A stretch of DNA of 64,000 nt from a virus. Taxonomy: Duplodnaviria; Heunggongvirae; Uroviricota; Caudoviricetes. The position numbers were made by a program, and so were the translations under genes. The stretch's first letter is position 1; the number at the start of each line of letters is the position of its first letter. The notes under the pieces were generated by a model. It saw only the letters and a list, made by a program, of their open reading frames with translations, searched no databases and was not told the DNA's origin. Location: the IMG/VR virus record IMGVR_UViG_3300032038_000047, positions 22,993 to 86,992 of that record, one strand, 5' to 3'. Below are positions 16,548 through 63,135 of this stretch, in pieces.

Positions 16548-17324
16548 GAGTTCCAGATTGATTGTTTCTCCCTCCTCTCTCTAACATAGAGTTATATGGA
16601 AACGGGCGTATGTAAGTGTGGTGCCCGGACAATCGCAGTGTATCATATCTGAGAACGGCGGTCAATGAGCAGAGTTACCAAATCGTGCCATAATGGGGGA
16701 GGGGTCCTTAACGGGCTCCTCCCTTCGCATGTTTTACAACTGGTATTCTTTTTTGTTGAGCGTACCGTTTATGGAACTCTCGGTATGTTAGGATTCGATT
16801 GACAGCAACTTTTACAATGCCTATAATGGAAAGGAGGTGAGTGCGATGGTATACTTGACCGCACGTAACGATAAGCAGTTGGGTATCTGTTTACGAATGC
16901 TGTATTCGGAAAGCGTGGAATTTAAAGTTGAGGTTATCATGAATGATCGTGATAAAATCGAATTCCGCGTGTATCCAATGCTCGATGAAATTCGTATTCC
17001 AGATATTATGCGTCGTTACGAGATCATGATATCGTAGTCCATCATTCCTAACGGGTTAAAGGTCGTGAATCACATGGCCTTTAACTCTTGCAAAAGAAGC
17101 AAGGAGATGCATGATGCAAATACTGACTAAAATAATAGAGCCATACCGGCTTTCTGATGGTTCATGGAAAGTAAGGCTTATTGAACGGATGGAAGAGTAT
17201 CCGGTTGATAAGGAGCGAGACTTCGGATACTGTAATGTATGCGGCGACAAACGATATCCCGAGTGCATTGATGGGTGCATTCACAGGCGCGGTATTCCGC
17301 TAAAAGAGGGATGGGATGTCTGAA

Positions 17325-17352
17325 TCCGCAAAAATTGCAACTGCTATAATGG
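17325..17352 (+). promoter_or_regulatory. Copy of the phage-specific promoter motif that drives the tRNA-like small RNA
   Basis: TCCGCAAAAATTGCAACTGCTATAATGG, with TATAAT at 17345-17350. Confidence 0.5.
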
Positions 17353-17420
17353 AAAGAATGTAGTTTAATTGGTAAAACGCTACTTAGAGATGGAGGTTCA
17401 ACCCCTCCCATTCTTTTTTC
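17353..17420 (+). ncRNA. tRNA-like small RNA with acceptor stem, D-arm and T-arm but a truncated anticodon region
   Basis: AAGAATG pairs with CATTCTT as a 7-bp acceptor stem. There is U8 and a D-arm GTTT-AATTGGTA-AAAC. The T-arm GGAGG-TTCAACC-CCTCC is followed by TTTTTT. Only 12 nt remain where the anticodon arm and variable loop should be. Confidence 0.4.
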
Positions 17421-17789
17421 GTTTTGTCCGCAAATTTTACAGCCTCCTAGATGGAATAAACTATTAGGAGGTATGTGTATGTTCATAGATATTCTGATCG
17501 TGGTGCTTTGCATCGTGGTGGTCAAGAACATATTGGCGAAGTACATGTAAGCGAACGTGATATTCAGACTGGAAGGGTCCTGCGGGGCCTTTCCTTTTTA
17601 CAACGACTTTTCTTTTTTTTGAAATCGCAAAAATTCCCGGGTGGGGTTTTCCGAAAAAACAATTCTGAACTGGAGTTCATACTGTCCTTAGTATATGCCA
17701 TGAAATGTGCCACGGTGTTTACAGCCCTTGTGATACCAATGGGTTTGTAAAATAGAGAGAGTTTTCGAATCCCTCTCTCTCCGCCACTG

Positions 17790-17967: not shown

Positions 17968-19038
17968 TCAGACTTCTCCGGATTCTGATTTTTCATCTTT
18001 CAGCAGCTCAGCGAAGTACCGCTCAATTTCTGCATTTACCGCCTCTCTTTTTGCATCTGTGGTATGCTGGTAGATCCGTTTTAGAGTCTGGATCGACGAC
18101 CACCCGCCACGCTCCATGGCGTATTTGTCCGGAGTGCCGAGTTCCAACATGATAGAGGCGTTCTGATGCCGGAGGTCGTGCAAGCGCATATGCGGAAGCC
18201 CCTCCTCTTTACAGATCAGAGTGAGCCGCTTGCTTAGTGTGTTGGCGTGGACGTTGCAGAAAGGGATATTCCGTGTTACACACTCATCCAGTTTCAAAGC
18301 GAGATACGCAGGAACTGGGAGTGTACGCTTGGATTTCCTGGTTTTTGTAGTTTTGACCACAAACTCATGGTTCTCATTTGGGACTTTGGCCTTTGTTACG
18401 TGCAGGAGCTGCTTCTCGGAGTCCCAGTCACTATGCTCTAGCGCCAGTATTTCTGATCTGCGCAGCCCGAGGAACATCGCCAGCAGGACCGGAACCTCGA
18501 TGGATTCCCCATCCACTGCTCTGATCAGTTTTGCGCACTGGTCTTTATCCAGGATATTTCCCTCGAAATCCTCTGCTTGCGGCAGTGTGGCACGGATCTG
18601 GCGGCCACAGAACTGCTTTATTACTGCTGACAGAAGCCCTTTGACATTCGCAACGGTTTTGGGGCCGCTGGTCTTTGCCTCACGATTGATTGCCACCTGG
18701 GCTACATTATCGGTGATATTTCGGAGTTGCATGAGCATTTCCGGCTGCAGGTGGTTTTTCTTGATGTTTTTGTAGCCTCTGATCGTGGATGGGGACAACA
18801 CGTTGCTTTTCATGTTAATATATTTGGTGATGGCTTCTTCCAGAGTCATGGTGGATTGGTCGAGAATGGTTTCATGGTGCCGCTGGGCTAATTCACTGGC
18901 CAGGCGGATGCACTCATATTTATCAGGGCTGGTAACGCTCTGGTAGACGCTCTTTCCATTTTCGTCTTTTCCAAGATACACACGAAGTCTCCAGGTTCCT
19001 GATGGTAGTTGCGTTGGGTTCATGATATCTGCCTCCAT
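17968..19038 (-). CDS. int: Tyrosine-type site-specific integrase
   Basis: C-terminal catalytic region 'HMRLHDLRHQNASIMLELGTP...ERGGWSSIQTL.RIYQHT' carries the R..HxxR..Y signature of tyrosine recombinases. The N-terminal SAM-like/core-binding region is present. Confidence 0.85.
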   Translation of the reverse strand: MEADIMNPTQLPSGTWRLRVYLGKDENGKSVYQSVTSPDKYECIRLASELAQRHHETILDQSTMTLEEAITKYINMKSNVLSPSTIRGYKNIKKNHLQPEMLMQLRNITDNVAQVAINREAKTSGPKTVANVKGLLSAVIKQFCGRQIRATLPQAEDFEGNILDKDQCAKLIRAVDGESIEVPVLLAMFLGLRRSEILALEHSDWDSEKQLLHVTKAKVPNENHEFVVKTTKTRKSKRTLPVPAYLALKLDECVTRNIPFCNVHANTLSKRLTLICKEEGLPHMRLHDLRHQNASIMLELGTPDKYAMERGGWSSIQTLKRIYQHTTDAKREAVNAEIERYFAELLKDEKSESGEV

Positions 19039-19904: not shown

Positions 19905-19932
19905 TCCGCAAAAATTACAAGTTCTATAATGG
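19905..19932 (+). promoter_or_regulatory. Phage-specific promoter motif with a downstream UACG-loop hairpin
   Basis: TCCGCAAAAATTACAAGTTCTATAATGG is followed by GAACC-TACG-GGTTC and TATATATTTTTT at 19932-19957. Confidence 0.5.
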
Positions 19933-20029
19933 AACCTACGGGTTCTATATATTTTTTGCAGGAGGTAACGTTGTGGTCAGCTTGACAAGAAAGGCTGGAA
20001 TCAGTATAGTGAGAAAGGAGGGAGGTGCC

Positions 20030-22276: not shown

Positions 22277-22346
22277 TTATATTCAGCAAAAAAAGCAAGT
22301 CCTATAACGGAAGTAATTCCAAGAAATCTGAAAGGAGTTTGATACT

Positions 22347-22790
22347 ATGGAATTTAGAGATCGCATTGATGAGGAATTGGAGCGAGTTTGCAACAAGATG
22401 AAGTCGGCGACCCCTGGCACGGATCAGTACGTACAGCTTCTGACGGAGGTGGAACGGCTCGCCAAGCTGATCGGTAACGAGGACCGACTGGAGTTGGAGA
22501 AGCTGGACAGTCAGGCCAAGCGTGACCTTGATGAGGACAAGCAGCGGCTCGCGGAAGTGGAAAGCGAGCGCAACTATGAACTCGCCAAGGATCAGGCAAA
22601 GGCCGAAGCTGCCACAGCGGCCAACGAACGGGAGGTCACGGACCGGGACAGCAAGCGCGGGATCGTGAAATCTCTGATCGGGGCTGGCGCGATGCTGGCC
22701 ATGGGGGTGCTGACGATCTACAGTGAGGAAAGTCGCATCATCACATCGAAGGCGTGGAGCTTTGTCTCCAAAGTGATGCCTAAGATTTAA
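22347..22790 (+). CDS. Coiled-coil protein with a C-terminal TM segment
   Basis: 147 aa. The N-terminal region is charged and coiled-coil-like. The C-terminus 'LIGAGAMLAMGVLTIY' is hydrophobic. Confidence 0.45.
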   Translation: MEFRDRIDEELERVCNKMKSATPGTDQYVQLLTEVERLAKLIGNEDRLELEKLDSQAKRDLDEDKQRLAEVESERNYELAKDQAKAEAATAANEREVTDRDSKRGIVKSLIGAGAMLAMGVLTIYSEESRIITSKAWSFVSKVMPKI

Positions 22791-23034: not shown

Positions 23035-23615
23035 CGGATGAACGCTTTGTGTATGAGAGTGATATTCGCAGCAAAAAGAACATCGCTCACCAGGCAATCC
23101 ATCGAAAGAACGGCAGCAAGTCCAAGAAATGCACGCTGCCCCATGATGGACTTTCTCAGAAACAGTGGAAGGAGCTGAACGGTCCGGTGCAAACGGTCAA
23201 TCTCAATGCGCCTATCGCATGGAAAGACTTCAAGGCGCTAAGTTCACAGATGCAAGAAAGCTACGTGATGAACCTGATTCGGAAGTATGATATTTCTCAA
23301 GTCGACTTTGCTGAATTAGTAGGGATCAGCGGCCCGGTCGTGAACAAATATTTTAAAGGTAGAAACATCAAATTTGGAAAGGGCAAGAAAGGGCGTTCCA
23401 GGAAGCAGGAGGACGCATGGATTGCGTTTGTCTGTGATATTCCTGAAACAGAGGTTGCAAATAATGAAACTTATGTAAAGCCAACTCCGTGTGAAGTGTC
23501 TCTGGTATTCCGCGGTAAACTCAAGCTGGATGATATTCTCAGCAGTTTGAAAGAGACCTTTGGAGATACGGTGGATGGCTGCATTCGGGTTACTTTTGAA
23601 AAGGAGGGTGCATAG
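23031..23615 (+). CDS. HTH-containing hypothetical protein
   Basis: 194 aa. 'ISQVDFAELVGISGPVVNKYF' is an XRE-like HTH. The start is probably non-ATG (TTG). Confidence 0.4.
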   Translation: MTDERFVYESDIRSKKNIAHQAIHRKNGSKSKKCTLPHDGLSQKQWKELNGPVQTVNLNAPIAWKDFKALSSQMQESYVMNLIRKYDISQVDFAELVGISGPVVNKYFKGRNIKFGKGKKGRSRKQEDAWIAFVCDIPETEVANNETYVKPTPCEVSLVFRGKLKLDDILSSLKETFGDTVDGCIRVTFEKEGA

Positions 23616-24607
23616 TGGGAAAAGATTCAAGTTATATTTGGGATCCGGAAAGACTAAGATTTCTGCTTGGTCAGGCCGGCATTTCGGGGGCAGAGCTCGG
23701 CAAGCAATGTGACCTTTCTAGCAAGTCTGTAGCCGACTATCTGTCCGGTGCCAGTGTGCCCGGCCTCCAAAACCTGATCAGGATCGCCGATTATTTCTGT
23801 GTACCGGTGGATTATCTGATCGGGAGGGTATCTTATTACGACGCCAAGGCTATTCAGAAGGATTTTCGGTGCAGTTATATGCGCCTTAGGCATGCCGCGT
23901 ACGAAAAATATATTCGGAGCAGCCACAGTAACCAACGGCCAATCGACCCGAATGACGATATTCTCCCAGTGTGGCCCTACAATCTGGTGGATGAGATATT
24001 CAAAGAGCCTACCGAGGACGTTCTCAATGACGATCAGTTGGTGGGGCTTCAGAACGCCCTTGATACGCTGACTGACCGCGAGCGGGAGGTTGTGCATTTA
24101 TATTATAAGAACGGGCTTACCCTTCGGCAGGTTGGTGAAATAGAGTCAGTAGGCCCTGCGCGAATCCGCCAGATCCTTGCCAAGTCTCTTCGAAAACTTC
24201 GGCATCCCAGCAGAGCAAATCAGATCCGGCTCGGTGCAGAGTTGGCAAAGAAAGAATCCTTTGTAAAAACCAAAGAGGCGGAACTGGAGGCGCGGCTGAA
24301 AGTAGTTGCAGAGCATGAGGAATCCTTAAAAGCTGTAAAAGACCCTAGTATGCCAACTAAGCGCACGATATCGCTGGTTGACCTGGATTTGTCAGTTCGG
24401 TCCTACAATTGTCTGGCTCGTGGCAGAATCAATACTTTATCGGAACTGATGGACGCTGCAGAGGCTGGCGAACTGGCAAACATCCGTAATCTTGGCAAGA
24501 AGTCAATTCTGGAGATCTGCAACAAAATCTACAGCCTGGCAGGAGTCTCTTATCATGAACGGTATGGTCTTGCTGTCCCGGAGTTAGTTAAAAAGGAGAA
24601 AGCGTAG
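23615..24607 (+). CDS. Fusion protein: XRE-type HTH + sigma-70 region 4 + RNA polymerase alpha-subunit C-terminal domain
   Basis: N-terminus 'LGQAGISGAELGKQCDLSSKSVADYLSG...LIRIADYFCVPVDYLIG' is XRE HTH. The middle 'LTDREREVVHLYYKNGLTLRQVGEIESVGPARIRQILAKSLRKLRHPSR' is sigma-70 region 4.2 (compare 'RIRQIEAKALRKLRHPSR'). The C-terminus 'LDLSVRSYNCLARGRINTLSELM...IRNLGKKSILEI' is alpha-CTD-like (compare 'LELTVRSANCLKAE...NLGKKSLTEI'). Confidence 0.75.
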   Translation: MGKDSSYIWDPERLRFLLGQAGISGAELGKQCDLSSKSVADYLSGASVPGLQNLIRIADYFCVPVDYLIGRVSYYDAKAIQKDFRCSYMRLRHAAYEKYIRSSHSNQRPIDPNDDILPVWPYNLVDEIFKEPTEDVLNDDQLVGLQNALDTLTDREREVVHLYYKNGLTLRQVGEIESVGPARIRQILAKSLRKLRHPSRANQIRLGAELAKKESFVKTKEAELEARLKVVAEHEESLKAVKDPSMPTKRTISLVDLDLSVRSYNCLARGRINTLSELMDAAEAGELANIRNLGKKSILEICNKIYSLAGVSYHERYGLAVPELVKKEKA

Positions 24608-24746
24608 TGGGAAAAGATATTAAGCTGTCGCCAAAGTATGCTTACGAGCTGCTGGAGCAGGTTACAAGGGATTGGTGATATTTTTTCCGCAAAATTAACA
24701 ACCTCTGTAATAGGAGAAATCCAATACTTTATGGAGGTACAAGATT

Positions 24747-24953
24747 ATGACTGGAAGAGTGATATTTAGCGTGGTTTGCCTGGGCATTAGCGTGTTTTCC
24801 ATCGGAGTATCTGCTGGAGCGACGATTCAGCAGCGGCTCGATCGGAAGAGCTACGATGGCCTGTTGGACAACCTGGGCTATGATGTTCACCACATCGGCA
24901 ATCAGGTGGTTGCCATGAGGAAAGGATTTTCAAAGAAAGGATTGGGCCTGTAA
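24747..24953 (+). CDS. Small membrane protein
   Basis: 68 aa with an N-terminal TM helix. It has its own upstream promoter motif (24686-24713) and a downstream terminator. Confidence 0.45.
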   Translation: MTGRVIFSVVCLGISVFSIGVSAGATIQQRLDRKSYDGLLDNLGYDVHHIGNQVVAMRKGFSKKGLGL

Positions 24954-24970
24954 CAGGGCCCTTTCTTTTT
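24944..24970 (+). terminator. Rho-independent terminator with GTAACAG loop
   Basis: GGGCCTGTAACAGGGCCC followed by TTTCTTTTT. Confidence 0.6.
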
Positions 24971-25003
24971 GTCCATCCGCAATTTTTACAACTCCTATAA
25001 TGA

Positions 25004-25135
25004 GGGAAGTGGAATTCGCTGAGTTATGTCGGCGGCCGGTGAAAGTCGGTAACCACATCAATAGTTCAATGGTAGAACACTCCAGTATGGAGAGACGCTC
25101 GTTCGAAGCGAGCAACCCTTATTTTTTTTGCTGGC
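25004..25135 (+). ncRNA. Candidate small RNA (about 125 nt) between a promoter and a terminator, with tRNA-like D-arm and T-arm segments
   Basis: It follows the promoter motif at 24976-25003. It contains AGTTCAATGGTAGAAC (a D-arm-like GG loop) and GCTCG-TTCGAAG-CGAGC (T-arm-like) followed by CCCTTATTTTTTTT. No acceptor pairing was found. The only ORF is 8 codons. Confidence 0.35.
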
Positions 25136-25197
25136 AGGATTGACAGGTATTCTCATATGTGATATTATTGCTCCACTTTTTGGTGAGGAGTGTTAAC

Positions 25198-25401: not shown

Positions 25402-25510
25402 TACTCCGAGTAGGTAAGAGGCTCCTTATGGGGTCTCTTTTTTTTCAGCAAATTTTACAGCAGCTATAATGGCAATAAATGCTAATTCTATATTCTAGGA
25501 GGAACGTATT

Positions 25511-25777: not shown

Positions 25778-25865
25778 CAGGGCCCTTTTCTTTTGTATCG
25801 TTATATTCCGCAATTTTTACAGGGTATATGATGGAGAATCTCAAAAATTTTTAGGAGGTTATATT

Positions 25866-26009: not shown

Positions 26010-26122
26010 AGCCTGTAACAGGGCTCTTTCCTTTTCTACAGTGTTTTTCCGCAAATTTTGCAAGGTGTAAGATGGAAGGATTATTCACAAAAGAAACTGA
26101 AATTCTGAAAGGAGCAATTATT

Positions 26123-26284: not shown

Positions 26285-26374
26285 CAGCTCCCCATTCTTT
26301 TTCACAACCGTTATATTTTTTCAGCAAGAATTACAGCGACAATAATGGAACAAAACTTAAAGGAGGAATTTGTA

Positions 26375-26550: not shown

Positions 26551-26943
26551 TTGTCTATGCGATATTTCTATGAGCCACCGCCGATCACCGTTCCCATGTA
26601 CGGACAGGTCCACTGCTGCAATCATCCGCTCTACACCTACTGCACGTTATATTTGGAAGGCGGTATTGGGCTTGCCGTGATCCAGCAGCGGTTTGACTCG
26701 GTCACAAAGCACTTCTGGTGGGGACCGATCGACGAGTGCCTGGCCAATGATATTTACTTGTCTCCAAACTTTCCGGAGTACTTTCATAGTCATGCCGCCA
26801 AGCCAACGGACGCCGGATTATATTTTACGGTTCCGGTCCGTTCTCTGATGTGGGCCCTCAGGATGAAGCCACTTCGGAAAGAGCCGTGGGAGCAGTTTTC
26901 CGCAGAATTAACAGCTCCTAAAATGGAAGGTATTACACTGTGA
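26551..26943 (+). CDS. Hypothetical protein
   Basis: 130 aa ORF. Confidence 0.4.
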   Translation: MSMRYFYEPPPITVPMYGQVHCCNHPLYTYCTLYLEGGIGLAVIQQRFDSVTKHFWWGPIDECLANDIYLSPNFPEYFHSHAAKPTDAGLYFTVPVRSLMWALRMKPLRKEPWEQFSAELTAPKMEGITL

Positions 26944-27131: not shown

Positions 27132-27261
27132 GATACCGGAGAACAGAGGGGGCTCTTAACAGGGCCTCTCTTTTTATTATGTCAACCAATCCGCAAAAAT
27201 TACAAGTACTATAATGGAACCTACGGGTTCTGATATTTTTCTTTTGAAAGGAGATTTCGCC

Positions 27262-28167
27262 ATGAATCCTGGAACATTCCTGAAAGTGCATTCACCAGTG
27301 TTGCTGGCGGGTGCGGCAATTGTGCTGATCGTCGGCGTGGTTGCCAGTGCGATTGCGACAGCACCGAAAGCAGCGGAAGAAGTCAAGGATATTCAGGAGA
27401 AAGCTAAGCATGTGAATCCTGAAAATTCCTCGGGGGAAGATTCCGAGGAAACCACCGTAGAAGAGGCCATTAACAGAGTCTCTTCTAATTTGCCCGAGCC
27501 TGCACAAATGGTGCTGAAGCGGATCCGCGGCCTCACCGTTGTTCAGAATCTGCGGTATCCGGAGTACCGAACGTTATATTTTGATGCGGCAAAAGTCCTT
27601 GGAAAGCGGTACCTGCCAACGCTTGTTATGGCTGCTGGGGCGGTTGCTTGCGTGATATTCTCGCAAAAGGCCTCGGCAGTGAAGTACGCGGCGGCAATGG
27701 GCATGCTGTCTACCACAGCGGGACGGTATGACAGAATACGGGATAAGATCCGCAAAGTGCTCGGTGAAGAGGAAGCGGTGGGTCTGGACCGTGATATTTT
27801 GAAAGAGGAGGCCAGTGAGAAGTTCAGTGATTCAGACATGACGCTGGCCTGTGGAGAGATTGAGGACACTGGTGATGGTGATATTCTGTTTTGGGAGCCG
27901 ATTACCGGGAAGTACTTCTATTCGTCAACACGAGCGCTGCAGGATGCGCTCACCAAGGCCAGCCGCATCCGGGAACGAAAAGATATTTCCTTCAATAAAC
28001 TTCTGGCGCTTATGGGGTTGGAAGGTATTCCGAACGGCAACGAACTCGGATGGAAAAAGGGCCAGAGCCTGATAGACTTCTGGTTCCACAACAATGACAT
28101 TGAGGTCGACGACGATACCAGGCCTTTGACAATTATCGACTGGATCACCAGCCCAACCTATATTTAA
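27262..28167 (+). CDS. Membrane-anchored protein, member 1 of a family of four paralogs
   Basis: N-terminal TM (VLLAGAAIVLIVGVVASAIA), an acidic linker, and a C-terminal conserved block 'ILFWEPITGKYFYSSTRALQDAL'. It is preceded by the promoter motif at 27190. Confidence 0.55.
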   Translation: MNPGTFLKVHSPVLLAGAAIVLIVGVVASAIATAPKAAEEVKDIQEKAKHVNPENSSGEDSEETTVEEAINRVSSNLPEPAQMVLKRIRGLTVVQNLRYPEYRTLYFDAAKVLGKRYLPTLVMAAGAVACVIFSQKASAVKYAAAMGMLSTTAGRYDRIRDKIRKVLGEEEAVGLDRDILKEEASEKFSDSDMTLACGEIEDTGDGDILFWEPITGKYFYSSTRALQDALTKASRIRERKDISFNKLLALMGLEGIPNGNELGWKKGQSLIDFWFHNNDIEVDDDTRPLTIIDWITSPTYI

Positions 28168-28183
28168 GAAAGGACAATCGCAA

Positions 28184-29158
28184 ATGGACGTAAAGACGAT
28201 CGCCAAGACGGTCAGCAGCATTTGTGTCAAGAACGGCCCTTCGATTCTCACGGGATTCGGAGTGGCCTTCTTTCTTGGCGCTACCGTTGCGGCTGCCGTC
28301 GTGTCACCTAAAGTGGTAAAACGGGTGAAAGCGGCAAAAGAACAGAAGAAGAAACGCCTCCAGAACGAGCAGGATGATATTTTGGAGGAAGACGAGGAAC
28401 AGGATGCCAAAGAAGAGAGAATCTATCGGGACGTGTACGAAGGCATGACCATGAAACAGGCCGGTGAAAAGTACGAGCTGACGCTGGCTGAGGTCCGTGA
28501 TATTTACAGAGCAAAGAAAAAGGCGCATAAGGCCCGGGGACGGAAACCGGGCGACCTGACTGTCTGGGAGAATATTAAGATTGCAGCGCCGTTATTTGCT
28601 CCGGCTGCACTGATGATCATCTGTGGGCTGATCTGTGTGGTCATGGCCAACAAGCTGCATATTGACAGAACCATGGCTGCCGTTGCCGCCTGTGAGCTGT
28701 CGGGGAACGCCCTGAAAGAGTATCAGGACAAAACTGCTGAGAAATTTGGAGAAAAAGCTGACAAGGAGATCAAGGAAGAGGTCGCAAAGGACCAGATCCG
28801 GAAGAATCCTCCTGAGAATAATACCGTGATATTTACTGGAAACGGAGAGTACCTATGCTATGAGCCAATCTCCAGGCAGTACATTCGATCCAGTTCCACT
28901 GCGGTAAAGGAAGCGATATTTAAGATCAGGGACGCATTGGCAGACGACGGCTGGTGCTCGGTCAATGACTACCTTGGATGGCTGAATGCGGAAGAGATGC
29001 CATACGGAGATGATATTGGCTGGTCAGCATTTGAGCCATGTGAGACAAAGGTGGAGGACAACTTCATCTACGACAGGGCCAAACCGGACGATGATACGCC
29101 GTGTCTGATCATTCAGCTCTATCCTCAGCCAAAGCACCGGTATGAGGGCAAACGGTAA
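28184..29158 (+). CDS. Membrane-anchored protein, paralog 2
   Basis: N-terminal TM plus C-terminal 'YLCYEPISRQYIRSSSTAVKEAI', which resembles the blocks in the 27262 and 46593 products. Confidence 0.55.
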   Translation: MDVKTIAKTVSSICVKNGPSILTGFGVAFFLGATVAAAVVSPKVVKRVKAAKEQKKKRLQNEQDDILEEDEEQDAKEERIYRDVYEGMTMKQAGEKYELTLAEVRDIYRAKKKAHKARGRKPGDLTVWENIKIAAPLFAPAALMIICGLICVVMANKLHIDRTMAAVAACELSGNALKEYQDKTAEKFGEKADKEIKEEVAKDQIRKNPPENNTVIFTGNGEYLCYEPISRQYIRSSSTAVKEAIFKIRDALADDGWCSVNDYLGWLNAEEMPYGDDIGWSAFEPCETKVEDNFIYDRAKPDDDTPCLIIQLYPQPKHRYEGKR

Positions 29159-29548: not shown

Positions 29549-29610
29549 ATCCGCAAAAATTACAAGTTCTATAATGGAACCTACGGGTTCTGTATATTTT
29601 TTCTGAAAGG

Positions 29611-40179: not shown

Positions 40180-40211
40180 AGCATCCGCAAAAATTACAAG
40201 TATCATAGTGG

Positions 40212-40335
40212 AAGGTAAATGTATAGACCCTTAAGACATCCGAAGCTTGGGCTAAGATCCAAGTGAGATGGTAGGTGAAAGTCCTACTCTATACATCTAA
40301 GCAGTAGCGTGGCTCACCTTCCACTTATTTTTTCT
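40212..40335 (+). ncRNA. Candidate structured small RNA or leader (long imperfect hairpin plus U-tract) downstream of a promoter motif
   Basis: The promoter-like motif at 40184-40211 is followed by GTGGAAGGT...(GTATAGAC...GTCTACTCTATAC)...ACCTTCCAC and TTATTTTTT. No ORF is present, and the RBS and start of the next gene follow at 40340-40352. Confidence 0.35.
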
Positions 40336-40351
40336 AAAGGAGAACTGATCT

Positions 40352-45651: not shown

Positions 45652-45725
45652 TATTCTGAGATAGGTATGGTATGATGCCATTGTCAGTAAAATCTGCAAC
45701 CTCTATAATGGAAAGGAGGACCATT

Positions 45726-45923
45726 ATGTTGGAACAAAGTTCTAGTTTCAATCAAGGAGGTGAAGAAATGGGCATGACTGATATACAGTATAAGGGTATG
45801 CTTATGGACCAATTGCGAGTCTTTAAGGATATTCTGAAACTGGCAGTAGAGCATGGCGACAAAGAGATCCAAGAAAAGGTTGAGGAACAAATTGCCGATA
45901 TACGTGTAAAACTCGAATTCTAA
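45726..45923 (+). CDS. Small protein; its N-terminus and leader are duplicated at 46035
   Basis: It shares an identical roughly 80-bp promoter/leader/first 10 codons (MLEQSSSFN) with the gene at 46035. A terminator follows. Confidence 0.45.
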   Translation: MLEQSSSFNQGGEEMGMTDIQYKGMLMDQLRVFKDILKLAVEHGDKEIQEKVEEQIADIRVKLEF

Positions 45924-46034
45924 GTAACGAAAGGGCTGAGCTGTTATGGCTTAGCTCTTTCTTTTTCTTTGAAGCTATGTTATAATGGGCCATCAGTAAA
46001 ATCTGCAACCTCTATAATGGAAAGGAGGACCATT

Positions 46035-46229
46035 ATGTTGGAACAAAGTTCTAGTTTCAATGACGAGGAGGTGGACGAAGAGATGATGAATGTACAAGAA
46101 GTCGCACGTACTATCGAGTGGTTCAGAGCTAAAGGCCTGAGCGAGAAAGACGTTAACGACTATCTGACATACGTCGCTACCGGAGTCGGGCTCCCGGCAA
46201 ACAACGAACCCGACAACAAAGAATCCTGA
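46035..46229 (+). CDS. Small acidic protein; N-terminus paralogous to 45726
   Basis: The identical leader and 'MLEQSSSFN' start then diverge. A terminator lies at 46235-46275. Confidence 0.45.
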   Translation: MLEQSSSFNDEEVDEEMMNVQEVARTIEWFRAKGLSEKDVNDYLTYVATGVGLPANNEPDNKES

Positions 46230-46339
46230 CCAAAGCAAAAAGGGCTCTGACCGTAATGGCCAGGGCTCTTTCTTTTTGTCCGCAAGAATTACAACCTCCA
46301 TAATGGTAGGAATACTATTATATTTAGGAGGTAATAACA

Positions 46340-46592: not shown

Positions 46593-47396
46593 ATGATGAA
46601 CACCCGTTTGATTCTGACTGTGGTTGGCGCGGTCGGCGTGGTTGCTACCGGCATTCTGGCATCCAGAGCCGGCAGGAAAGCGCAAAAGAAGCTGAGCGAA
46701 GAACCCGTTGTGGTGGATATTCCCGCTGAGGAGATCCAGGAATTCTTCGATGAAAACACCGAGGCCGTGGAACCGGTCCGTACAAAGAAGGAAGTCGTCA
46801 AGCTTGTGTGGAAGTATTATATTCCCCCGGTGCTGGCTGGTTTGGTGACGATCGGCGCAATGATAGGAGCCCATCATCTCGGAGCTAAAGAGATTGCGGC
46901 CCTTACGGCATCCTGCGCCTACCTCACCGCCAACCGGGACAAGCTGGAGGAGAAGATCCGTGAGCGATACGGCGAAGAGGCCCTGGAGGATATTCGTGCA
47001 GAGGTTATGGAAGAGCTGTCCTGCACTGCAAATGGAAAAATCTCGGTGGAGACAACCGGCAAGGGGAACCTTTTGTGCTTCGAGGCATATTCCGGGAGAT
47101 GGTTCCGGTCGTCAAAAGAAGCCGTTGACGAAGCCATAAAGAAGTTCAACGAGATGTTCGACTGCGGCAAAGGCAGCTACATGTCGATGAATGACCTGTA
47201 CGATCTATTTGGCATTTCTGAGACGCATTTTGGACATGAAATGGGCTGGCCGGCAGATCCTGAATACTACGACCATGATATTGTCTTCGATACGACTCTG
47301 GTTGAGAATGACAAAGAATGCGGGGAAGACCTCTATGTGATTGAGATCAACCCGTTCAGCTACAGCTACCCGATTGACTATTGGATGGAGGTGTAA
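46593..47396 (+). CDS. Membrane-anchored protein, paralog 3 of the 27262/28184 family
   Basis: N-terminal TM plus C-terminal 'LLCFEAYSGRWFRSSKEAVDEAI'. Confidence 0.5.
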   Translation: MMNTRLILTVVGAVGVVATGILASRAGRKAQKKLSEEPVVVDIPAEEIQEFFDENTEAVEPVRTKKEVVKLVWKYYIPPVLAGLVTIGAMIGAHHLGAKEIAALTASCAYLTANRDKLEEKIRERYGEEALEDIRAEVMEELSCTANGKISVETTGKGNLLCFEAYSGRWFRSSKEAVDEAIKKFNEMFDCGKGSYMSMNDLYDLFGISETHFGHEMGWPADPEYYDHDIVFDTTLVENDKECGEDLYVIEINPFSYSYPIDYWMEV

Positions 47397-48485: not shown

Positions 48486-48600
48486 GCTAACTCAGAGTTA
48501 GAATATGGCGATTATATTCTACTTTCGGTAGAGCGCAAAAATTACAACTGCTATAATGAGAGAGCATTTGTGCTTTTAATTTTGAAAGGAGTGTTTTGGA

Positions 48601-58920: not shown

Positions 58921-58948
58921 TCCGCAAGAAATACAACGGCTATAATAG
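58921..58948 (+). promoter_or_regulatory. Copy of the phage promoter motif upstream of the VRR-NUC gene
   Basis: TCCGCAAGAAATACAACGGCTATAATAG. Confidence 0.4.
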
Positions 58949-59005
58949 GAGAGATAGGAGATGCGCCTTACATCTCATTTATTTTTGAGTCGAGGAGGCT
59001 CTTCT

Positions 59006-59302: not shown

Positions 59303-59834
59303 GCACGCATTCCTGGGAGCCAGCAACTACCACTGGCTCAACTACGACATGGAGAAATTGATATCCACTTACCGAAACCGGCAGGCGGTTCAGCGGGGAA
59401 CCGAGCTCCATGCCTTTGCCAAGAATGCGATTGATCTGAGAATCAAGCTCCCACGCAACAAACAGACCCTCAGCATGTATGTGAACGATGCCATTGGCTA
59501 TCGGATGACTCCGGAGCAGGTGCTTTGTTATTCCGACAACTGCTTTGGAACCGCCGACGCCATCAGCTATAACGAGAATCAGAAGCTTTTGCGTATTCAT
59601 GACCTGAAAACCGGTGCCACGCCGGCTTCCATGAACCAGCTTCTTATTTACATGGCCATGTTCTGCCTGGAGTACGATATTGACCCGTCCAAGATTGACG
59701 CTGAGCTCCGCATCTACCAGAGCGACGAAGTGAACGTTTTGAATCCGACGACGGATGATATTATGCCGGTCATTGAGGCCATGATTGACGCCGATGAATG
59801 CATCTCACAATTACAAGCGGAGGGTAGAGACTGA
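59268..59834 (+). CDS. Hypothetical protein
   Basis: AGCAGGAGG RBS with ATG at 59268, in frame with the longer ORF at 59082. Confidence 0.45.
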   Translation: MNFNNHYNLIGKHAFLGASNYHWLNYDMEKLISTYRNRQAVQRGTELHAFAKNAIDLRIKLPRNKQTLSMYVNDAIGYRMTPEQVLCYSDNCFGTADAISYNENQKLLRIHDLKTGATPASMNQLLIYMAMFCLEYDIDPSKIDAELRIYQSDEVNVLNPTTDDIMPVIEAMIDADECISQLQAEGRD

Positions 59835-62563
59835 TGGACACAATGTTTACTGATATTTTGGACTTGCCGTTCCCGGATGACCAACTTGCGCACTACGGAA
59901 CACCTCGGCACAGCGGACGCTATCCCTGGGGTTCCGGTAAAAATCCGCAGCGCCATAAGAACTTTCTGACCATGGATGCGGAGCTCAAGAAGCAGGGCCT
60001 CAGTGAAAAAGAGCGGGCTCAGGCTATGGGCATGTCCACCACCGAACTGCGGGCCATGAAATCTATTGCCAGCGACGCGCACAAGGCGGAAGTGGCAGCA
60101 CAGGTGATTAAACTCCGCAAGACAGGTATGTCCTTTGACGCCATTGCACAGGAAACCGGTGTTTCAGCCTCCAGCGCCAGAAATATGGTAAAAGAGGATT
60201 ATGCCATTAAGCTTAGTTCCGACCGCAAGCTGGCTGAAGTGCTCAAAGAGCAGGTGGAACAGCACCCGTATCTGGATATTGGCGCCGGTGTCGAGCGACA
60301 GCTCGGCGTATCCGACACGAAGCTGAAAACAGCGGTCAAGATTCTGGAGCAGGAAGGATATTCGAAGAAGTACCTGAAAGTCGAGCAGGCCGGAAATCCC
60401 GGACAGTTTACGACGGTTATGGTGCTGGCCAAGGACAACGTGACCTATGAGGAGCTCAGGGAACACAAAGACCAGATTATTTCTCCCCAAGGCGTATTTT
60501 CCAATGACGGCGGAAATACCTTTCTTGGCATCAAACCGCCGGTCAGCATCGATTCCAAACGTATTGATATTTGCTATGCCGAGCAGGGCGGAACCGAGAA
60601 AGACGGCCTGATTGAGATCCGTCCCGGTGTCCCTGATATTTCCCTTGGCGATAACCGCTACGCCCAGGTCCGTATTGCGGTCGACGGAACGCACTATCTG
60701 AAGGGCATGGCCGTCTACAACGACAAACTTCCCGACGGTGTTGATATTCGCTTCAATACCAACAAGGATTCTTCCAAATCCAAGATGGAAGTTCTCAAAG
60801 AGATGAACACCATCAAAGCAACCGGCGAAGTGGATATGGATAATCCCTTTGGAGCCACTATCCGTCAGTATGAATACGAGGATGAAAAAGGCAATAAACA
60901 TTTGTCCGCCATCAATATCGTAAATAACGATGAAGACTGGGCCAAATGGTCCAAAACTCTGTCCTCTCAGATGTTGTCGAAGCAGTCTCCGGCCTTGGCC
61001 AAGCAGCAACTGGATATTACGTACGATCGCAAGAAGCAGGAATTCAACGAGATCATGGCGCTCACAAACCCGGTTCTCAAGAAACATCTGCTGGAGTCTT
61101 TTGCCGACGGTTGTGACTCCGCTGCTGTGGACCTGAAGGCCGCCGCCCTTCCGAGACAGGCTACCAAGGTTCTTATTCCAATGCCGAGCCTCAAAGACGA
61201 CGAGATTTTCGCCCCGTCCTACAACAACGGCGAGCAGGTCGTGCTGATCCGATATCCTCATGGCGGAACCTTTGAAATTCCGACGCTGACTGTAAACAAT
61301 AAGGCAAAAGAGGGCATTGACACCATTGGCAAGGACGCCCGAAACGCGGTTGGTATCAACGCCAAAGTGGCGGAGCGGTTATCCGGCGCCGATTTTGACG
61401 GCGATACGGTTACGGTTATTCCCATTGTCGGACAGAAGATCAAGACCAGCAACGCTTTGGAAGGCCTGAAGGACTTTGACCCGAAGCATGAGTACCGCGC
61501 CTACGAAGGGATGCCCAAGACCTGCAAGGAGAACGGTTTCCAGAAGCAGATGGAGATGGGCAAGGTCTCCAATCTGATCACCGACATGACCATTCGGGGT
61601 GCTACAGAGGATGAAATCGCCAGAGCGGTCCGGCATTCCATGGTCGTCATCGATGCGGAGAAGCACAACCTGGACTGGAAGCGTTCCTACCAGGAGAACC
61701 GGATTGCCGAGCTGAAAGAGAAGTATCAGGGCGGCGCCAACAAGGGTGCCTCCACGCTTATTTCGCAGGCAAGCTCCGATACCAGAGTGAATGAACGCAA
61801 ATCCGGCTACAAGATTGACCCCGATACCGGTGAGAAGATCTATACCGAGACCGGCCGAACCTACAAGACCGAGAAGGTCATGAAGGACGGCAGCGTCAAA
61901 ACCGAGATTCATAAAGCCCAGGAGAAGTCCACAAAGATGGCGGAAGCCTCTGATGCGTTCGAGCTCTCCTCCGGCACCAGAATCGAGAATGTGTACGCGA
62001 CGCATGCCAACAAGCTTAAAGCTTTGGCCAACGAAGCCCGCAAAGCATACGTGGCTACCGAAAACCCCAAACGGAACCCAACTGCGGCAAAAGAGTATGC
62101 GCCCGAGGTATCCTCTCTGCTGGCAAAACTGAACATTGCGCTGAAGAATGCGCCGAATGAGCGAAAAGCACAGCTTGTGGCCAGTAAAGTGGTTGAGACG
62201 AAAATTGAGCACAATCCAGAGCTGAAAGATGATGACGAGCATTTGAGCCGCGTCAGACGCCAGGCTCTTGCGGAAGCCCGTGCCAGAAGCGGAGCTCTGA
62301 GCAGGAAAGAGCGCAATATCGATATCACAGACCGGGAATGGGAAGCCATCCAGGCCAACGCCATCAGCCCGACCCAGCTCAAGACCATTTTATCCAATAC
62401 GGACCTTGACAAGCTGAAGGAACGCGCCACTCCGCGCAATAACAAGTCCCTGAACAGTGCCGCATTATCAAGAGCCAGATCGCTGCTGAACAGGGGCTAC
62501 ACATGGGCTGAAGTTTCCGAGCAAGTCGGGATCTCTGTCAGCACGTTGCAGAAGCAGATCTGA
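59834..62563 (+). CDS. Large (909 aa) hypothetical protein with several HTH-like segments
   Basis: N-terminal HTH-like repeats ('GLSEKERAQAMGMSTTELRAMKS', 'GMSFDAIAQETGVSASSARNMVKE') and a C-terminal 'YTWAEVSEQVGISVSTLQKQI'. No ATPase motifs, so it is not a terminase. It lies directly upstream of the CTATTGATATTT iteron array. Confidence 0.5.
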   Translation: MDTMFTDILDLPFPDDQLAHYGTPRHSGRYPWGSGKNPQRHKNFLTMDAELKKQGLSEKERAQAMGMSTTELRAMKSIASDAHKAEVAAQVIKLRKTGMSFDAIAQETGVSASSARNMVKEDYAIKLSSDRKLAEVLKEQVEQHPYLDIGAGVERQLGVSDTKLKTAVKILEQEGYSKKYLKVEQAGNPGQFTTVMVLAKDNVTYEELREHKDQIISPQGVFSNDGGNTFLGIKPPVSIDSKRIDICYAEQGGTEKDGLIEIRPGVPDISLGDNRYAQVRIAVDGTHYLKGMAVYNDKLPDGVDIRFNTNKDSSKSKMEVLKEMNTIKATGEVDMDNPFGATIRQYEYEDEKGNKHLSAINIVNNDEDWAKWSKTLSSQMLSKQSPALAKQQLDITYDRKKQEFNEIMALTNPVLKKHLLESFADGCDSAAVDLKAAALPRQATKVLIPMPSLKDDEIFAPSYNNGEQVVLIRYPHGGTFEIPTLTVNNKAKEGIDTIGKDARNAVGINAKVAERLSGADFDGDTVTVIPIVGQKIKTSNALEGLKDFDPKHEYRAYEGMPKTCKENGFQKQMEMGKVSNLITDMTIRGATEDEIARAVRHSMVVIDAEKHNLDWKRSYQENRIAELKEKYQGGANKGASTLISQASSDTRVNERKSGYKIDPDTGEKIYTETGRTYKTEKVMKDGSVKTEIHKAQEKSTKMAEASDAFELSSGTRIENVYATHANKLKALANEARKAYVATENPKRNPTAAKEYAPEVSSLLAKLNIALKNAPNERKAQLVASKVVETKIEHNPELKDDDEHLSRVRRQALAEARARSGALSRKERNIDITDREWEAIQANAISPTQLKTILSNTDLDKLKERATPRNNKSLNSAALSRARSLLNRGYTWAEVSEQVGISVSTLQKQI

Positions 62564-62629: not shown

Positions 62630-63135
62630 AACGGCGCTATTGATATTTGCATATGCTTCGGATGTCACTCGCATTTAGACGTTAAAACGGCGCAAACCGG
62701 TCCAAATGGGCTATTGATATTCTCCCGAAGGATTCCTGGCCTGTTTGGACCTATTTGGGCCTGTTTACGGTATGTGTGTATGCGTCCATTGATGTTCTTG
62801 CGAAGGCCCTTTAGAGAAGAGGCTGTAGTACGGCTGTATATGGGGTGCCTTTTTATTGATATTTGAACGCTGTCGCTTGATCTGATCCTACAAAACCGCA
62901 ACGGAGCTCTATGTTGTTTGAAATCAATATAACGGGCCTGGCTATTGATATTTGAGTCCCCATAAGAGACGATTCTGCCGTCTATCAGAAGCGTTTTCCG
63001 TACTCTAAACTGGAATTCTGCGCGCACGGCTATTGATATTTAGAGGGGGTACCCTTGGCTGTCAGCAGCACAGATAAAAGCGTTTGCGCTTATGCTTGCT
63101 GTGTTAGCTGCCACCCCATGTATTGATATTTGAAT
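62630..63135 (+). repeat. Iteron array of 6-7 spaced copies of (GG)CTATTGATATTT
   Basis: Copies at about 62636, 62712, 62786 (degenerate CCATTGATGTTC), 62858, 62944, 63032 and 63120. The spacing is roughly 75-90 bp. The region is non-coding. Confidence 0.6.

Follow-up and report, generated by a model that had tools for sequence, protein, structure and literature searches.

What reads the TATAAT-bearing element that recurs on one strand of this phage genome? The stretch of DNA analysed here (64,000 nucleotides, hereafter the window) had been predicted to carry a recurrent class of phage-specific promoters without a canonical -35 hexamer, which host RNA polymerase (RNAP) would use with the help of a MotA-like phage factor. 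We trained a matrix on the 16 sites listed in that original prediction and scanned the window on both strands. Indeed, the recurrent element was borne out: 20 copies of TCCGCAAAAATTACAAnnnCTATAATGGAA lie, without exception on the + strand, between 16.8 and 58.9 kb of the window, and the copy at 19905 reads TCCGCAAAAATTACAAGTTCTATAATGGAA. These sites score 27-45 bits, compared with a maximum of 20 bits in 50 shuffles, and in the window scan the range from 8 to 27 bits is empty. Four of the 20 (16802, 26899, 45684 and 45993) come from outside the training set, and a cross-phage matrix returned the identical 20 window sites, again with none on the - strand. CTATAATGG by itself was observed nine times against 0.38 expected. 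All 20 sites are intergenic or at gene ends, each upstream of + strand genes, and the tail/lysis module was free of the element as expected, the matrix scan finding no site in 1-16.8 kb.

Some details had to be corrected. The consensus as first written carried one N too many, the true gap between ACAA and CTATAAT being 3 nt, and because its spacing is off by one it gives no match when taken literally, even at 3 mismatches. Most of the starts given were right, and five were 1 nt off (the corrected values are 17427, 22283, 25445, 25807 and 48532); two supposedly shorter forms at 45694 and 46003 are actually full-length copies at 45684 and 45993. The sites and the associated features are as follows.

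16802..16831, + strand: putative promoter element, hybrid form ACAGCAACTTTTACAATGCCTATAATGGAA (27.2 bits, outside the training set; conserved in L085/L086)
TTGACA at 16799, 17-bp spacer, TATAAT: sigma-70-type promoter overlapping the 16802 element (12/12 consensus)
17325..17354, + strand: putative promoter element driving a tRNA-like gene (42.7 bits; hexamer 17345-17350)
17354..17416, + strand: tRNA-like gene, 63 nt (Rfam RF00005, 52.1 bits; acceptor AAGAATG/CATTCTT)
17427..17456, + strand: putative promoter element, hexamer CTAGAT (32.1 bits; variant kept in L085/L086)
19905..19934, + strand: putative promoter element, the copy under study (45.0 bits; GGAACCTACGGGTTC leader hairpin from offset 0, -8.8 kcal/mol)
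22283..22312, + strand: putative promoter element, hexamer TATAAC (30.6 bits; variant conserved in L085/L086; hairpin GGAAGUAAUUCC from offset 0), upstream of 22347-22790 and of the operon with the sigma4/alpha-CTD gene
24686..24715, + strand: putative promoter element, hexamer TGTAAT (34.2 bits)
24976..25005, + strand: putative promoter element (36.9 bits; terminator 24944-24961 just upstream)
25445..25474, + strand: putative promoter element (34.4 bits; leader hairpin from offset 0)
25807..25836, + strand: putative promoter element (33.6 bits)
26048..26077, + strand: putative promoter element (32.4 bits)
26321..26350, + strand: putative promoter element (34.5 bits)
26899..26928, + strand: putative promoter element (31.6 bits, outside the training set; absent from the original prediction), inside the 3' end of 26551-26943 and upstream of 26965
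27190..27219, + strand: putative promoter element with GGAACCTACGGGTTC leader hairpin (43.7 bits; hairpin at offset 0; upstream of the DUF6353 gene at 27262)
29550..29579, + strand: putative promoter element with GGAACCTACGGGTTC leader hairpin (45.0 bits; upstream of 29620)
40184..40213, + strand: putative promoter element, then a 142-nt leader (35.3 bits)
45684..45713, + strand: putative promoter element, hybrid, first copy of a tandem duplicate (29.8 bits, outside the training set), with TTGTCA 17 bp upstream of the hexamer (11/12 sigma-70 match)
45993..46022, + strand: putative promoter element, second copy of the tandem duplicate (29.8 bits; leader identical to that of 45684)
46279..46308, + strand: putative promoter element (38.3 bits)
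48532..48561, + strand: putative promoter element (33.7 bits)
58921..58950, + strand: putative promoter element of the endonuclease / Cas4-like exonuclease / RNA polymerase operon (35.4 bits)
59834..62563, + strand: predicted single-chain two-barrel RNA polymerase, 909 aa, with N- and C-terminal helix-turn-helix (HTH) domains

A hairpin with T-run, that is, a terminator, precedes 9 of the 14 sites in 14.5-30.5 kb, and a hairpin with T-run also lies just downstream of three sites. The hexamer has A at position 2 in 18 of the 20 window sites and the final T in 19, with both in 17, and the exceptions conserved in the window and its relatives are CTAGAT, TATAAC and TGTAAT. The CTAGAT of the 17427 site is without the position-2 A, and the TATAAC of the 22283 site without the final T, required of a sigma-70 -10. 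The expected absence of a canonical -35 holds for 17 sites, where TCC plus unrelated bases occupy the place in question; it fails for the other three, which carry a -35-like hexamer at 17-bp spacing (TTGACA at 16799, TTGTCA at 45681 and the duplicate of the latter), so that the host polymerase probably uses at least those. The TCCGCAA block is conserved as described, but its end lies 13 bp before the hexamer, giving only partial overlap with the -35 position. The extended -10 TG is absent from the element. Overall, one uninterrupted conserved block closes with an AT-rich segment followed by a purine, as in the promoters of T7-like single-subunit polymerases.

The start of transcription had been placed 6-8 nt after TATAAT, and the sequences immediately downstream argue against that position. 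The three small RNAs that the elements were thought to precede are one identical 5' leader hairpin (GGAACCUACGGGUUC) ahead of protein genes, and the true RNA gene behind a site is the tRNA-like gene at 17354-17416, which is detected by Rfam; ARAGORN reported no tRNA in the window. In the window, L086, the Faecalibacterium phage FP_oengus and L016, tRNA genes start 3, 3, 2 and 2 nt after the hexamer, respectively; together these represent three phage lineages. The outermost pair falls on the first nucleotide after the hexamer in 29 of 75 stable leader folds; hairpins at offset 0 number 28 against 8.2 in shuffles, and the hexamer is not entered by hairpins. Because tRNA genes begin 2-3 nt on and leader hairpins at the first nucleotide, the start most likely lies right after the hexamer, which would then span -6 to -1 with G or A as +1, as at T7-type promoters. 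The tRNAs and hairpins could, in principle, instead derive from read-through transcripts begun upstream. A role of the hairpins as insulating terminators is unlikely, since many lack a U-run and separate terminators are already present upstream. In Lactococcus phage 1706, AGAAAGAAGGT right after the hexamer forms a near-complete extended Shine-Dalgarno. A Shine-Dalgarno abutting the hexamer was nevertheless dropped as proof of the start site, as it is not discriminating: even with a start 7 nt further on, enough of it would survive, and the same layout is seen at 16799, a canonical sigma-A site.

The window encodes a candidate reader for such promoters. The 909-aa protein at 59834-62563 matches phrog_4291 (E=0) and contains a GADFDGD motif that is invariant across 35 homologues. 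Its AF2 model (pLDDT 81.7) predicts a two-barrel RNA-polymerase fold, whose structural matches include QDE-1, RDR2, the Thermus phage proteins P32 gp64, P74 gp62 and P23-45 gp96, beta' subunits, crAss-like gp66 and subunits of AR9 and phiKZ, with QDE-1 and P74 gp62 as the best fold matches. HTH and sigma-70 region-4-like matches lie at residues 87-120 and 886-909. No T7-type RNAP was found among the large window proteins scanned, the two-barrel enzyme being the only polymerase among them. The gene, which had gone unflagged in the original prediction, sits behind the 58921 element and immediately ahead of the structural genes. The family comprises at least 8,000 protein clusters (45-73% identity) and occurs in phages of Actinobacteria, Bacilli and Clostridia; 250 records of the phage collection carry the gene, and in the sequence records inspected it is mostly labelled 'HTH DNA-binding protein' or, wrongly, 'RNA-dependent RNA polymerase'. 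The family has been proposed as a putative RNA polymerase, the promoter not being described (bioRxiv 10.1101/842583), and literature searches on the promoter sequences, the domain fusion, YonO-like promoters and actinobacteriophage promoters yielded nothing further, no published promoter for the family being found.

The element recurs in phages that encode this polymerase. FP_oengus has GACGCGAAAAATACAGnnnCCTTTATGGAA in about 15 copies, with CTTTAT replacing TATAAT and TTTTAT as the hexamer of its polymerase operon; phage 1706 has TCCACAAGTTTTACATAnACTATAGTAGAA in 12 copies, and Arthrobacter phage Circum has TCGCGTAAATTACAnGGGCTATAATRRA in 9, in each case on the + strand. All three share an identical register of the element, have no copies within their structural modules and encode the polymerase (FP_oengus was read over 1-50 kb of its 58.4 kb, the rest of which begins inside the tape-measure gene). 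Across 80 IMG/VR loci (0.86 Mb) selected solely for encoding the polymerase, the element at >=18 bits occurs 43 times on the gene strand and never on the opposite one, compared with 2 matches, both strands counted, in 1.25 Mb of control viral loci, a link between element and polymerase that is inseparable from a link with the whole phage lineage. About 50 of 69 metagenomic viral contigs with the polymerase gene have a copy 900-1050 bp ahead of it, and the equivalent polymerase-operon copy is present in Circum and FP_oengus too; in the window it is the 58921 copy, the most widely conserved of all copies in the phage family. Among non-structural proteins, the window, FP_oengus, 1706 and Circum have in common only a primase-polymerase, a helicase, an endonuclease, a Cas4-like exonuclease and the polymerase. 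Scanned against 185,579 genomes of bacteria and archaea, the strict element pattern was never found, which, together with the strand specificity, supports the proposed phage-specific promoter class; dependence on a phage-encoded protein also appears well founded, with the polymerase as the probable conserved partner. A search for polymerase residues co-varying with the TT/AA promoter variants gave no clear or concentrated signal. Megablast of 17-30 kb against the phage collection returned no match, and a 16-mer scan of IMG/VR gave 84 loci, nearly all by chance, among which the only real relatives are L049, L016/L084 and L076, the latter two recognised as such upon re-scoring.

We consider it quite likely that the 20 elements are promoters of the phage's own single-chain two-barrel DNA-dependent RNA polymerase, a pairing that, like the start site, we infer from sequence. 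Counted from +1 as the first base after the hexamer, such a promoter would consist of an upstream TCCGCAA box at about -26 to -20, an A/T-rich stretch, a TTACA box at about -16 to -12, four variable bases, a C at -7 and the AT-rich hexamer (TATAAT in the window) at -6 to -1, which would be melted, with initiation at G or A and transcripts beginning GGAA or AGAA. The TCCGCAA and TTACA boxes are separated by roughly one turn of the helix, and the fused HTH domains of the polymerase probably recognise them; the likeness of the hexamer to a sigma-70 -10 would be largely coincidental in function, paralleling the TATA upstream of a T7-type +1. Many transcripts would open with a 5'-terminal stem-loop or a long Shine-Dalgarno, and some almost directly with a tRNA. 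Since 58921 precedes the polymerase gene and the structural genes follow closely, this class probably serves the non-structural genes, with positive feedback on the polymerase, and the late genes may be driven by read-through from these promoters. A polymerase gene behind its own promoter needs a separate start-up route, and the first polymerase would come from host RNAP, either by read-through from the ordinary sigma-A promoters at 16799, 19982, 25140 and 45681 or by weak use of TATAAT. Among the points against the phage-polymerase reading are these: in most phages the hexamer is a perfect sigma-70 -10 consensus, and the modules of terminator, promoter and small gene, like the hairpins with T-run downstream of three sites, are typical of host-polymerase units.

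The host enzyme might have a larger share than this, in an arrangement in which both polymerases use the same sites, although we regard that as unlikely. Host sigma-A RNAP would act first, starting ~7 nt downstream of the hexamer, weakly at TATAAT and strongly where a -35 is present, and would thereby express the first genes, the polymerase operon among them; later, its phage counterpart would take over and initiate directly behind the hexamer. If both uses were under selection, the closeness of the hexamer to TATAAT would be accounted for; TATAAT is retained in about 70% of polymerase-operon promoters across very different hosts. The hybrid sites at 16799 and 45681 fit such an arrangement, as do the position of the polymerase gene behind a promoter of this kind and the record of phage 1706, in which the polymerase is not among the listed structural proteins, and the GG after the hexamer resembles a stabilising discriminator (sigma region 1.2). 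However, not even the polymerase operon of FP_oengus has a -10-like hexamer, no extended -10 TG is present, and melting would in any case call for AT-rich sequence directly before +1.

We give little credence to the original view of the sites as sigma-A 'middle' promoters, comparable to those of T4 MotA/AsiA, Mu Mor and phi29 p4, at which host RNAP would use TATAAT with GGA as a favourable discriminator and a phage protein at TCCGCAA/TTACAA would replace the -35 contact. Several features would suit it: the hexamer fits the -10 consensus with highly conserved second and last positions, most sites are without a -35 and three family members have a real one at the right spacing, intrinsic terminators flank the transcription units, and the gene at 23615-24607 encodes a phage protein in which sigma region 4 and alpha-CTD domains are present. 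However, a start 6-8 nt after the hexamer would truncate the tRNA genes by 3-5 nt, the leader hairpins run from the first base after the hexamer, and the CTTTAT of FP_oengus is no sigma-A -10. The boxes recur in conserved form in phages of Actinobacteria, Bacilli and Clostridia, whereas the 23615 and 19454 products, which had been put forward as the factors, are not conserved together with the element, and these points together leave a MotA-box-like activator working with host RNAP unsupported. TCCGCAA plus TTACA is moreover unlike the T4 MotA box (...TGCTTtA), and no MotA or AsiA homologue was detected by Pfam and PHROGs among the ~26 window proteins scanned.

The 23615 product combines an XRE HTH with sigma region 4 and alpha-CTD. 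It was rejected as the general reader: 1706, Circum, the L016 locus and FP_oengus 1-50 kb have no homologue, and its more distant homologues, at 35% identity, occur in the element-less phages L088 and L089. A single-sequence search of IMG/VR with this protein found nothing, and an alignment search found only 3-4 full-length homologues, none in motif-bearing contigs. The 19454 product, a member of a PHROG family without assigned function and unmatched in Pfam, was rejected as a factor as well, being found only in FP_oengus and L016.

It is very improbable that the boxes are operators at which a phage repressor (the XRE protein of 23615 or the small Xre-like product of 19218) silences early genes in the lysogen by way of overlapping ordinary promoters: although the phage is temperate (integrase at 17968-19038), encodes XRE-type HTH proteins nearby and has a palindromic GCAAnnnTTGC in a few copies, the consensus instead reads TTACA; the same boxes occur in 1706 and Circum, both strictly lytic; the boxes keep strictly to one strand and to a fixed register relative to the start region; the putative repressors do not accompany them across phages; and without a -35 or extended -10 the 'ordinary promoter' is missing.

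The likeness of the element to promoters of the T7 type is drawn from general knowledge of those sequences (the T7 promoter reads TAATACGACTCACTATAGGGAGA). As in T7, T3 and SP6, it is a contiguous, highly conserved and strand-specific unit of ~25-30 bp with many copies per genome, a TATA-like AT-rich segment adjoins the predicted +1, the start would be a purine (GGA/AGA here, GGGAGA in T7), and the promoter sequence drifts along with the polymerase among related phages; some transcripts would have an extreme 5' stem-loop followed by a Shine-Dalgarno, like the T7 phi10 leader. Unlike T7, the predicted enzyme is of the two-barrel type, with the ADFDGD motif of multi-subunit polymerases and fused HTH domains in place of the DNA-polymerase-I fold, conservation of the element reaches further back, to about -26, and falls into two boxes, and the phage, a temperate siphovirus, has no copies in its structural module.

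Among two-barrel enzymes, those of P23-45 had their promoters assigned by motif presence tracking polymerase presence, and for its gp96 (virion) and gp64 (non-virion) RNAPs starts were mapped by cappable-seq and binding by ChIP (PMC10770324), measurements in place of which the start of the present element is deduced from sequence; the P23-45 enzymes have no fused HTH and share ~15% sequence identity with the 909-aa protein. YonO of the Bacillus prophage SPbeta has one mapped start for one long late operon, its promoter sequence not being defined (PMC5467207). The polymerase predicted here is likewise a single-chain, multi-subunit-homologous polymerase of a temperate Firmicutes phage, with its gene directly preceding the late structural operon in the same orientation, but it would have 20 promoter copies, mostly in the non-structural region. 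The non-virion polymerases of AR9 and phiKZ are also two-barrel enzymes that do not need host sigma and use AT-rich elements near the start; unlike the present one they are multi-subunit, and their motifs are shorter. The AR9 polymerase reads uracil-containing template-strand DNA (PMC5449584). T4 middle promoters are similar at first sight, with a -10-like hexamer, no -35 and a phage box near -30 (in the sigma-70-type count), yet here the start would lie right after the hexamer, not 7 nt on, and the element follows the polymerase across host phyla.

To conclude, we lean towards regarding this as the first promoter definition, with a start site, for the large family of HTH-fused single-chain two-barrel polymerases, with an architecture conserved across host phyla that would run from a CGC box through an A/T tract, a (T)ACA box, four variable bases and a TATAAT-like hexamer to a G/A start. 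That the architecture is kept across host phyla would imply factor-independent, self-contained recognition via the fused HTH. The question of how single-chain two-barrel polymerases, with YonO as their founding example, find their promoters becomes directly testable with a 30-bp consensus, a predicted +1 and natural variants by the dozen, each set paired with polymerase sequences. If the reading is true, it would provide a natural T7-like orthogonal transcription system built on another polymerase fold, and a possible source of compact orthogonal expression parts for Gram-positive hosts. The polymerase family is a signature of a phage supercluster spanning Actinobacteria and Firmicutes, so far flagged only as a putative polymerase, and transcription units would be re-annotated in hundreds of sequenced phages. 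It would also explain the expression strategy of the common Faecalibacterium-type gut phages.

When both strands of the window were scanned with a position matrix trained on the 16 full sites of the original prediction, 20 copies of the element were found on the + strand (27-45 bits) and none on the - strand. No window site scored within 8-27 bits and the top of 50 shuffles was 20 bits, confirming that the repeated family is real; the copy at 19905, for example, reads TCCGCAAAAATTACAAGTTCTATAATGGAA. Four of the 20 sites (16802, 26899, 45684 and 45993) were outside the training set, and a matrix derived independently of that set from several phages recovered the same 20 sites, again with none on the - strand. 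Two details had to be corrected: the consensus as originally written has no match even at three mismatches, because it contains one N too many, and the two supposed short forms (45684 and 45993) are both full-length copies.

The window comes from a temperate siphovirus. It carries a tape-measure gene and genes for tail and lysis, and the integrase is followed by ~45 kb of genes on the + strand, a helicase among them.

Features of the window
17968-19038, - strand, integrase
23615-24607, + strand, 330-aa chimera (XRE-type HTH, sigma part, coiled-coil linker, alpha C-terminal domain)
52881-57044, + strand, D5-like primase-polymerase

Element sites range from 16.8 to 58.9 kb and, as had been claimed, are absent from the tail/lysis module. 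Every site is either intergenic or at the end of a gene, with a + strand gene next downstream, and a hairpin plus T-run precedes 9 of the 14 sites within 14.5-30.5 kb. Judged from sequence, the copies are predicted promoters by every positional criterion. The stretch 45684-46229 is a tandem duplication: a promoter, its leader (identical in both copies) and a small ~65-aa gene (45726-45923 and 46035-46229) each occur twice.

The 909-aa product of the gene at 59834-62563 matches PHROG 4291 (E=0) and contains GADFDGD, the catalytic loop of multi-subunit RNA polymerases, which is invariant among 35 homologues; HTH or sigma-region-4-like segments are present at both termini. An AlphaFold model with 32 homologues as input (mean pLDDT 81.7) retrieved the two-barrel polymerase QDE-1 in Foldseek (E=1.8e-10), with further matches to plant RDR2 and the Thermus phage polymerases P32 gp64 and P74 gp62. 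This protein has been proposed as a putative RNA polymerase from HHpred and a DxDGD motif, and as a signature of a supercluster of phages that covers Actinobacteria and Firmicutes, in a preprint that makes no statement on promoters (10.1101/842583). Homologues occur in 250 phage records, three of which we compared with the window.

The element in three polymerase-bearing phages
Faecalibacterium phage FP_oengus: Clostridia; polymerase identity 45%; element GACGCGAAAAATACAGnnnCCTTTATGGAA; ~15 copies
Lactococcus phage 1706: Bacilli; polymerase identity 39%; element TCCACAAGTTTTACATAnACTATAGTAGAA; 12 copies
Arthrobacter phage Circum: Actinobacteria; polymerase identity 54%; element TCGCGTAAATTACAnGGGCTATAATRRA; 9 copies

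In all three phages the copies align with the window element without gaps, lie on the coding strand throughout, are absent from structural genes and cluster where the non-structural arm begins, with one extra copy before the endonuclease/exonuclease/polymerase operon. The non-structural genes common to these phages and the window are those for the primase-polymerase, helicase, endonuclease, Cas4-like exonuclease and polymerase. L085, L086 and L087, which are closely related to the window, also carry multiple copies, as do several IMG/VR contigs (L016/L084, L076, L049/L090 and L091-L094). Among 80 IMG/VR loci picked solely for encoding the polymerase (0.86 Mb), a cross-phage matrix gave 43 matches scoring 18 bits or more, every one of them on the gene strand, against 2 in 1.25 Mb of control viral loci with both strands counted. 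A copy lies 900-1050 bp 5' of the polymerase gene in ~50 of the 69 loci having enough upstream sequence, and the consensus of this polymerase-operon copy is CTCGCrnnAAAAACATnnnCTATAATAGAAGGAG. A search of 185,579 bacterial and archaeal genomes with a strict element pattern found no match. Conservation across phages is strongest in the CGC and (T)ACA boxes, which are separated by about one helical turn. The element thus appears to travel with the polymerase and not with the host. No clear signal emerged when co-variation of polymerase residues with a promoter variant was sought.

Several other features of these genomes were noted. Four DUF6353 paralogues are encoded in the window (27262-28167, 28184-29158, 46593-47396 and 50243-51277) and at least one copy in FP_oengus, Circum, L016, L076, L049 and L092; DUF6353 is a conserved, uncharacterised component of the phage supercluster. 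In L085, a relative with 86% identity, a reverse-transcriptase gene (RVT_1, L085 1052-2185) lies upstream of promoter copy L085 2662, the counterpart of window site 16802. The ~1-kb non-coding stretch from the polymerase gene to the next ORFs holds an array (62640-63135) in which cTATTGATATTTga occurs five times exactly and once as a variant, at intervals of roughly 70-140 bp, which could be a replication origin, a packaging region or another promoter class before the structural genes. Its core is also that of a dispersed octamer, TGATATTT, present 54 times in the window against 2.4 expected, always on the + strand (18714-63131) and never in the tail/lysis region. The octamer has no conserved flanks. 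Copies fall within genes, where the frame varies, on TGA stop codons, and immediately before Shine-Dalgarno sequences in 5' leaders. It is the commonest 8-mer of FP_oengus (33 copies on the + strand) and is not enriched in 1706 or Circum; it may be a Chi-like signal, one specific to the host, or one used by the phage polymerase or in replication.

Four indirect lines of evidence (tRNAs, hairpins, Shine-Dalgarno sequences and hexamer variants) together put the predicted +1 at the G/A that follows the hexamer, which would then occupy -6 to -1. Firstly, a 63-nt tRNA-like gene (17354-17416, + strand), called by Rfam but not by ARAGORN, has its acceptor stem 3 nt past the hexamer of site 17325, and the same arrangement is seen in L086. 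A different tRNA, with an odd anticodon loop, lies 2 nt past the hexamer in FP_oengus, as does a suppressor tRNA in L016 (anticodon TTA, reading UAA). A start 6-8 nt past the hexamer would cost each tRNA its first 3-5 bases. Relatives thus have other tRNAs at the position of the window's tRNA-like gene, the suppressor tRNA with anticodon TTA being that of IMG/VR contig 3300045988_032765.

tRNA genes of relatives
L016, 9598-9673, - strand
L175, 2935-3006

Secondly, we folded the leaders of 140 distinct element copies from all these phages. In 29 of 75 stable folds the outermost base pair involves the first nucleotide past the hexamer; hairpins at that offset numbered 28, compared to 8.2 in shuffled leaders, and the hairpins do not extend into the hexamer. 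The stems vary (GGAACC/GGUUCU, GGAA/UUCC, GGAGG/CUCC, GAGACG/CGUCUU), and many lack a U-run, which marks them as stem-loops at the 5' terminus and not as terminators. Structures of this kind stabilise the mRNAs of Gram-positive bacteria, and the T7 phi10 transcript also opens with one. Thirdly, AGAAAGAAGGT, a nearly complete extended Shine-Dalgarno sequence, directly follows the hexamer in phage 1706. Finally, the hexamer is CTTTAT in FP_oengus, and CTAGAT, TATAAC and TGTAAT are kept at particular sites in the window and its relatives; all four are poor or dead sigma-A -10 elements. The tRNA 5' ends and the hairpins speak indirectly against the start originally expected 6-8 nt downstream of TATAAT and point to the base after the hexamer.

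An identical hairpin, GGAACCTACGGGTTC plus (T)ATATTTTTT, follows three promoters (19929-19957, 27215-27243 and 29574-29602) and is rated as an intrinsic terminator, just ~25 nt into the transcript; in the wider family, a hairpin with differing stem sequences plus TATATTTTT follows the polymerase-operon promoter. The GGAACCTACGGGTTC hairpin may serve to stabilise the 5' end, to attenuate transcription, or to stop the host polymerase but not that of the phage. The 142-nt leader after promoter 40184 (40214-40351) shows long-range pairing, AATGTATAGA ... TCTATACAT, has no match in Rfam and may be a structured non-coding RNA.

We therefore consider it likely that the phage-encoded two-barrel RNA polymerase uses the elements as its promoters and that +1 is the base next to the hexamer. 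Use of the element by both polymerases would explain the conservation of TATAAT, and the gain of a -35 hexamer by three family members (16799, 45681 and the duplicate of 45681) suggests that one promoter class converts easily into the other and that dual use may occur; we regard general dual use as unlikely. The original prediction of a phage-specific promoter class stands, but its MotA-like mechanism, in which host RNAP and a phage factor act at the element, is not supported, since the two-barrel polymerase tracks the element and the predicted +1 is next to the hexamer. A hexamer very near TATAAT and transcription units framed by intrinsic terminators speak for that mechanism, which we nevertheless hold to be quite improbable. 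Nor did its candidate factors hold up, neither being conserved with the element. The 19454 product was found only in FP_oengus and L016. The 23615 product, which joins an XRE HTH, sigma-70 region 4 (nearly identical in motif to primary sigma factor region 4.2, ..RIRQILAKSLRKLRHPSR) and an RNA polymerase alpha C-terminal domain, is missing from the parts covered of 1706, Circum and FP_oengus (1-50 kb of 58.4 kb, the remainder starting within the tape-measure gene), and its distant homologues sit in phages without the element. This chimera belongs to a large uncharacterised family (>3,000 relatives, many without the XRE part, mostly from gut metagenomes), for which we found no describing paper; as the phage has a polymerase of its own, the chimera may mimic host polymerase modules, blocking or redirecting host transcription. 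That the boxes are repressor operators is very hard to credit, because strictly lytic relatives retain them.

Under the favoured reading, promoters of the phage polymerase, the 909-aa enzyme itself would initiate at the element, its HTH domains reading the CGC and (T)ACA boxes. The polymerase-operon promoter would give positive feedback on the polymerase, and read-through from it may also express the structural genes; in FP_oengus these lie 3' of the polymerase gene and share its strand, and for the window they lie past its 64-kb end. Start-up would have to involve the host polymerase, and ordinary sigma-A promoters are found at 16799, 19982, 25140 and 45681. Two are near-consensus sigma-70-type promoters on the + strand: 19982-20010 (TTGACA-17-TATAGT), 77 bp downstream of 19905, and 25140-25168 (TTGACA-17-TATTAT plus an upstream TG), 164 bp downstream of 24976. 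They face the same small genes as 19905 and 24976, which may have tandem promoters, one per polymerase.

Functionally, T7-class promoters are closest to the element and have the start geometry predicted here, but the proposed enzyme is two-barrel. Promoters assigned to the two-barrel polymerases of Thermus phage P23-45 are also close, and there too motif presence tracks polymerase presence (PMC10770324). The founding member of the single-chain homologues of multi-subunit polymerases is YonO of SPbeta, whose promoter sequence its describing paper expressly did not settle (PMC5467207). Our literature search, with subscription journals mostly outside its scope so that an earlier description is possible, found no promoter for the HTH-fused family and no such sequences. 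Promoters specific to a phage polymerase are known as a kind, whereas promoter recognition by this polymerase family is uncharacterised; the predicted +1 and polymerase would offer a sharp, widely applicable hypothesis that is cheap to test.
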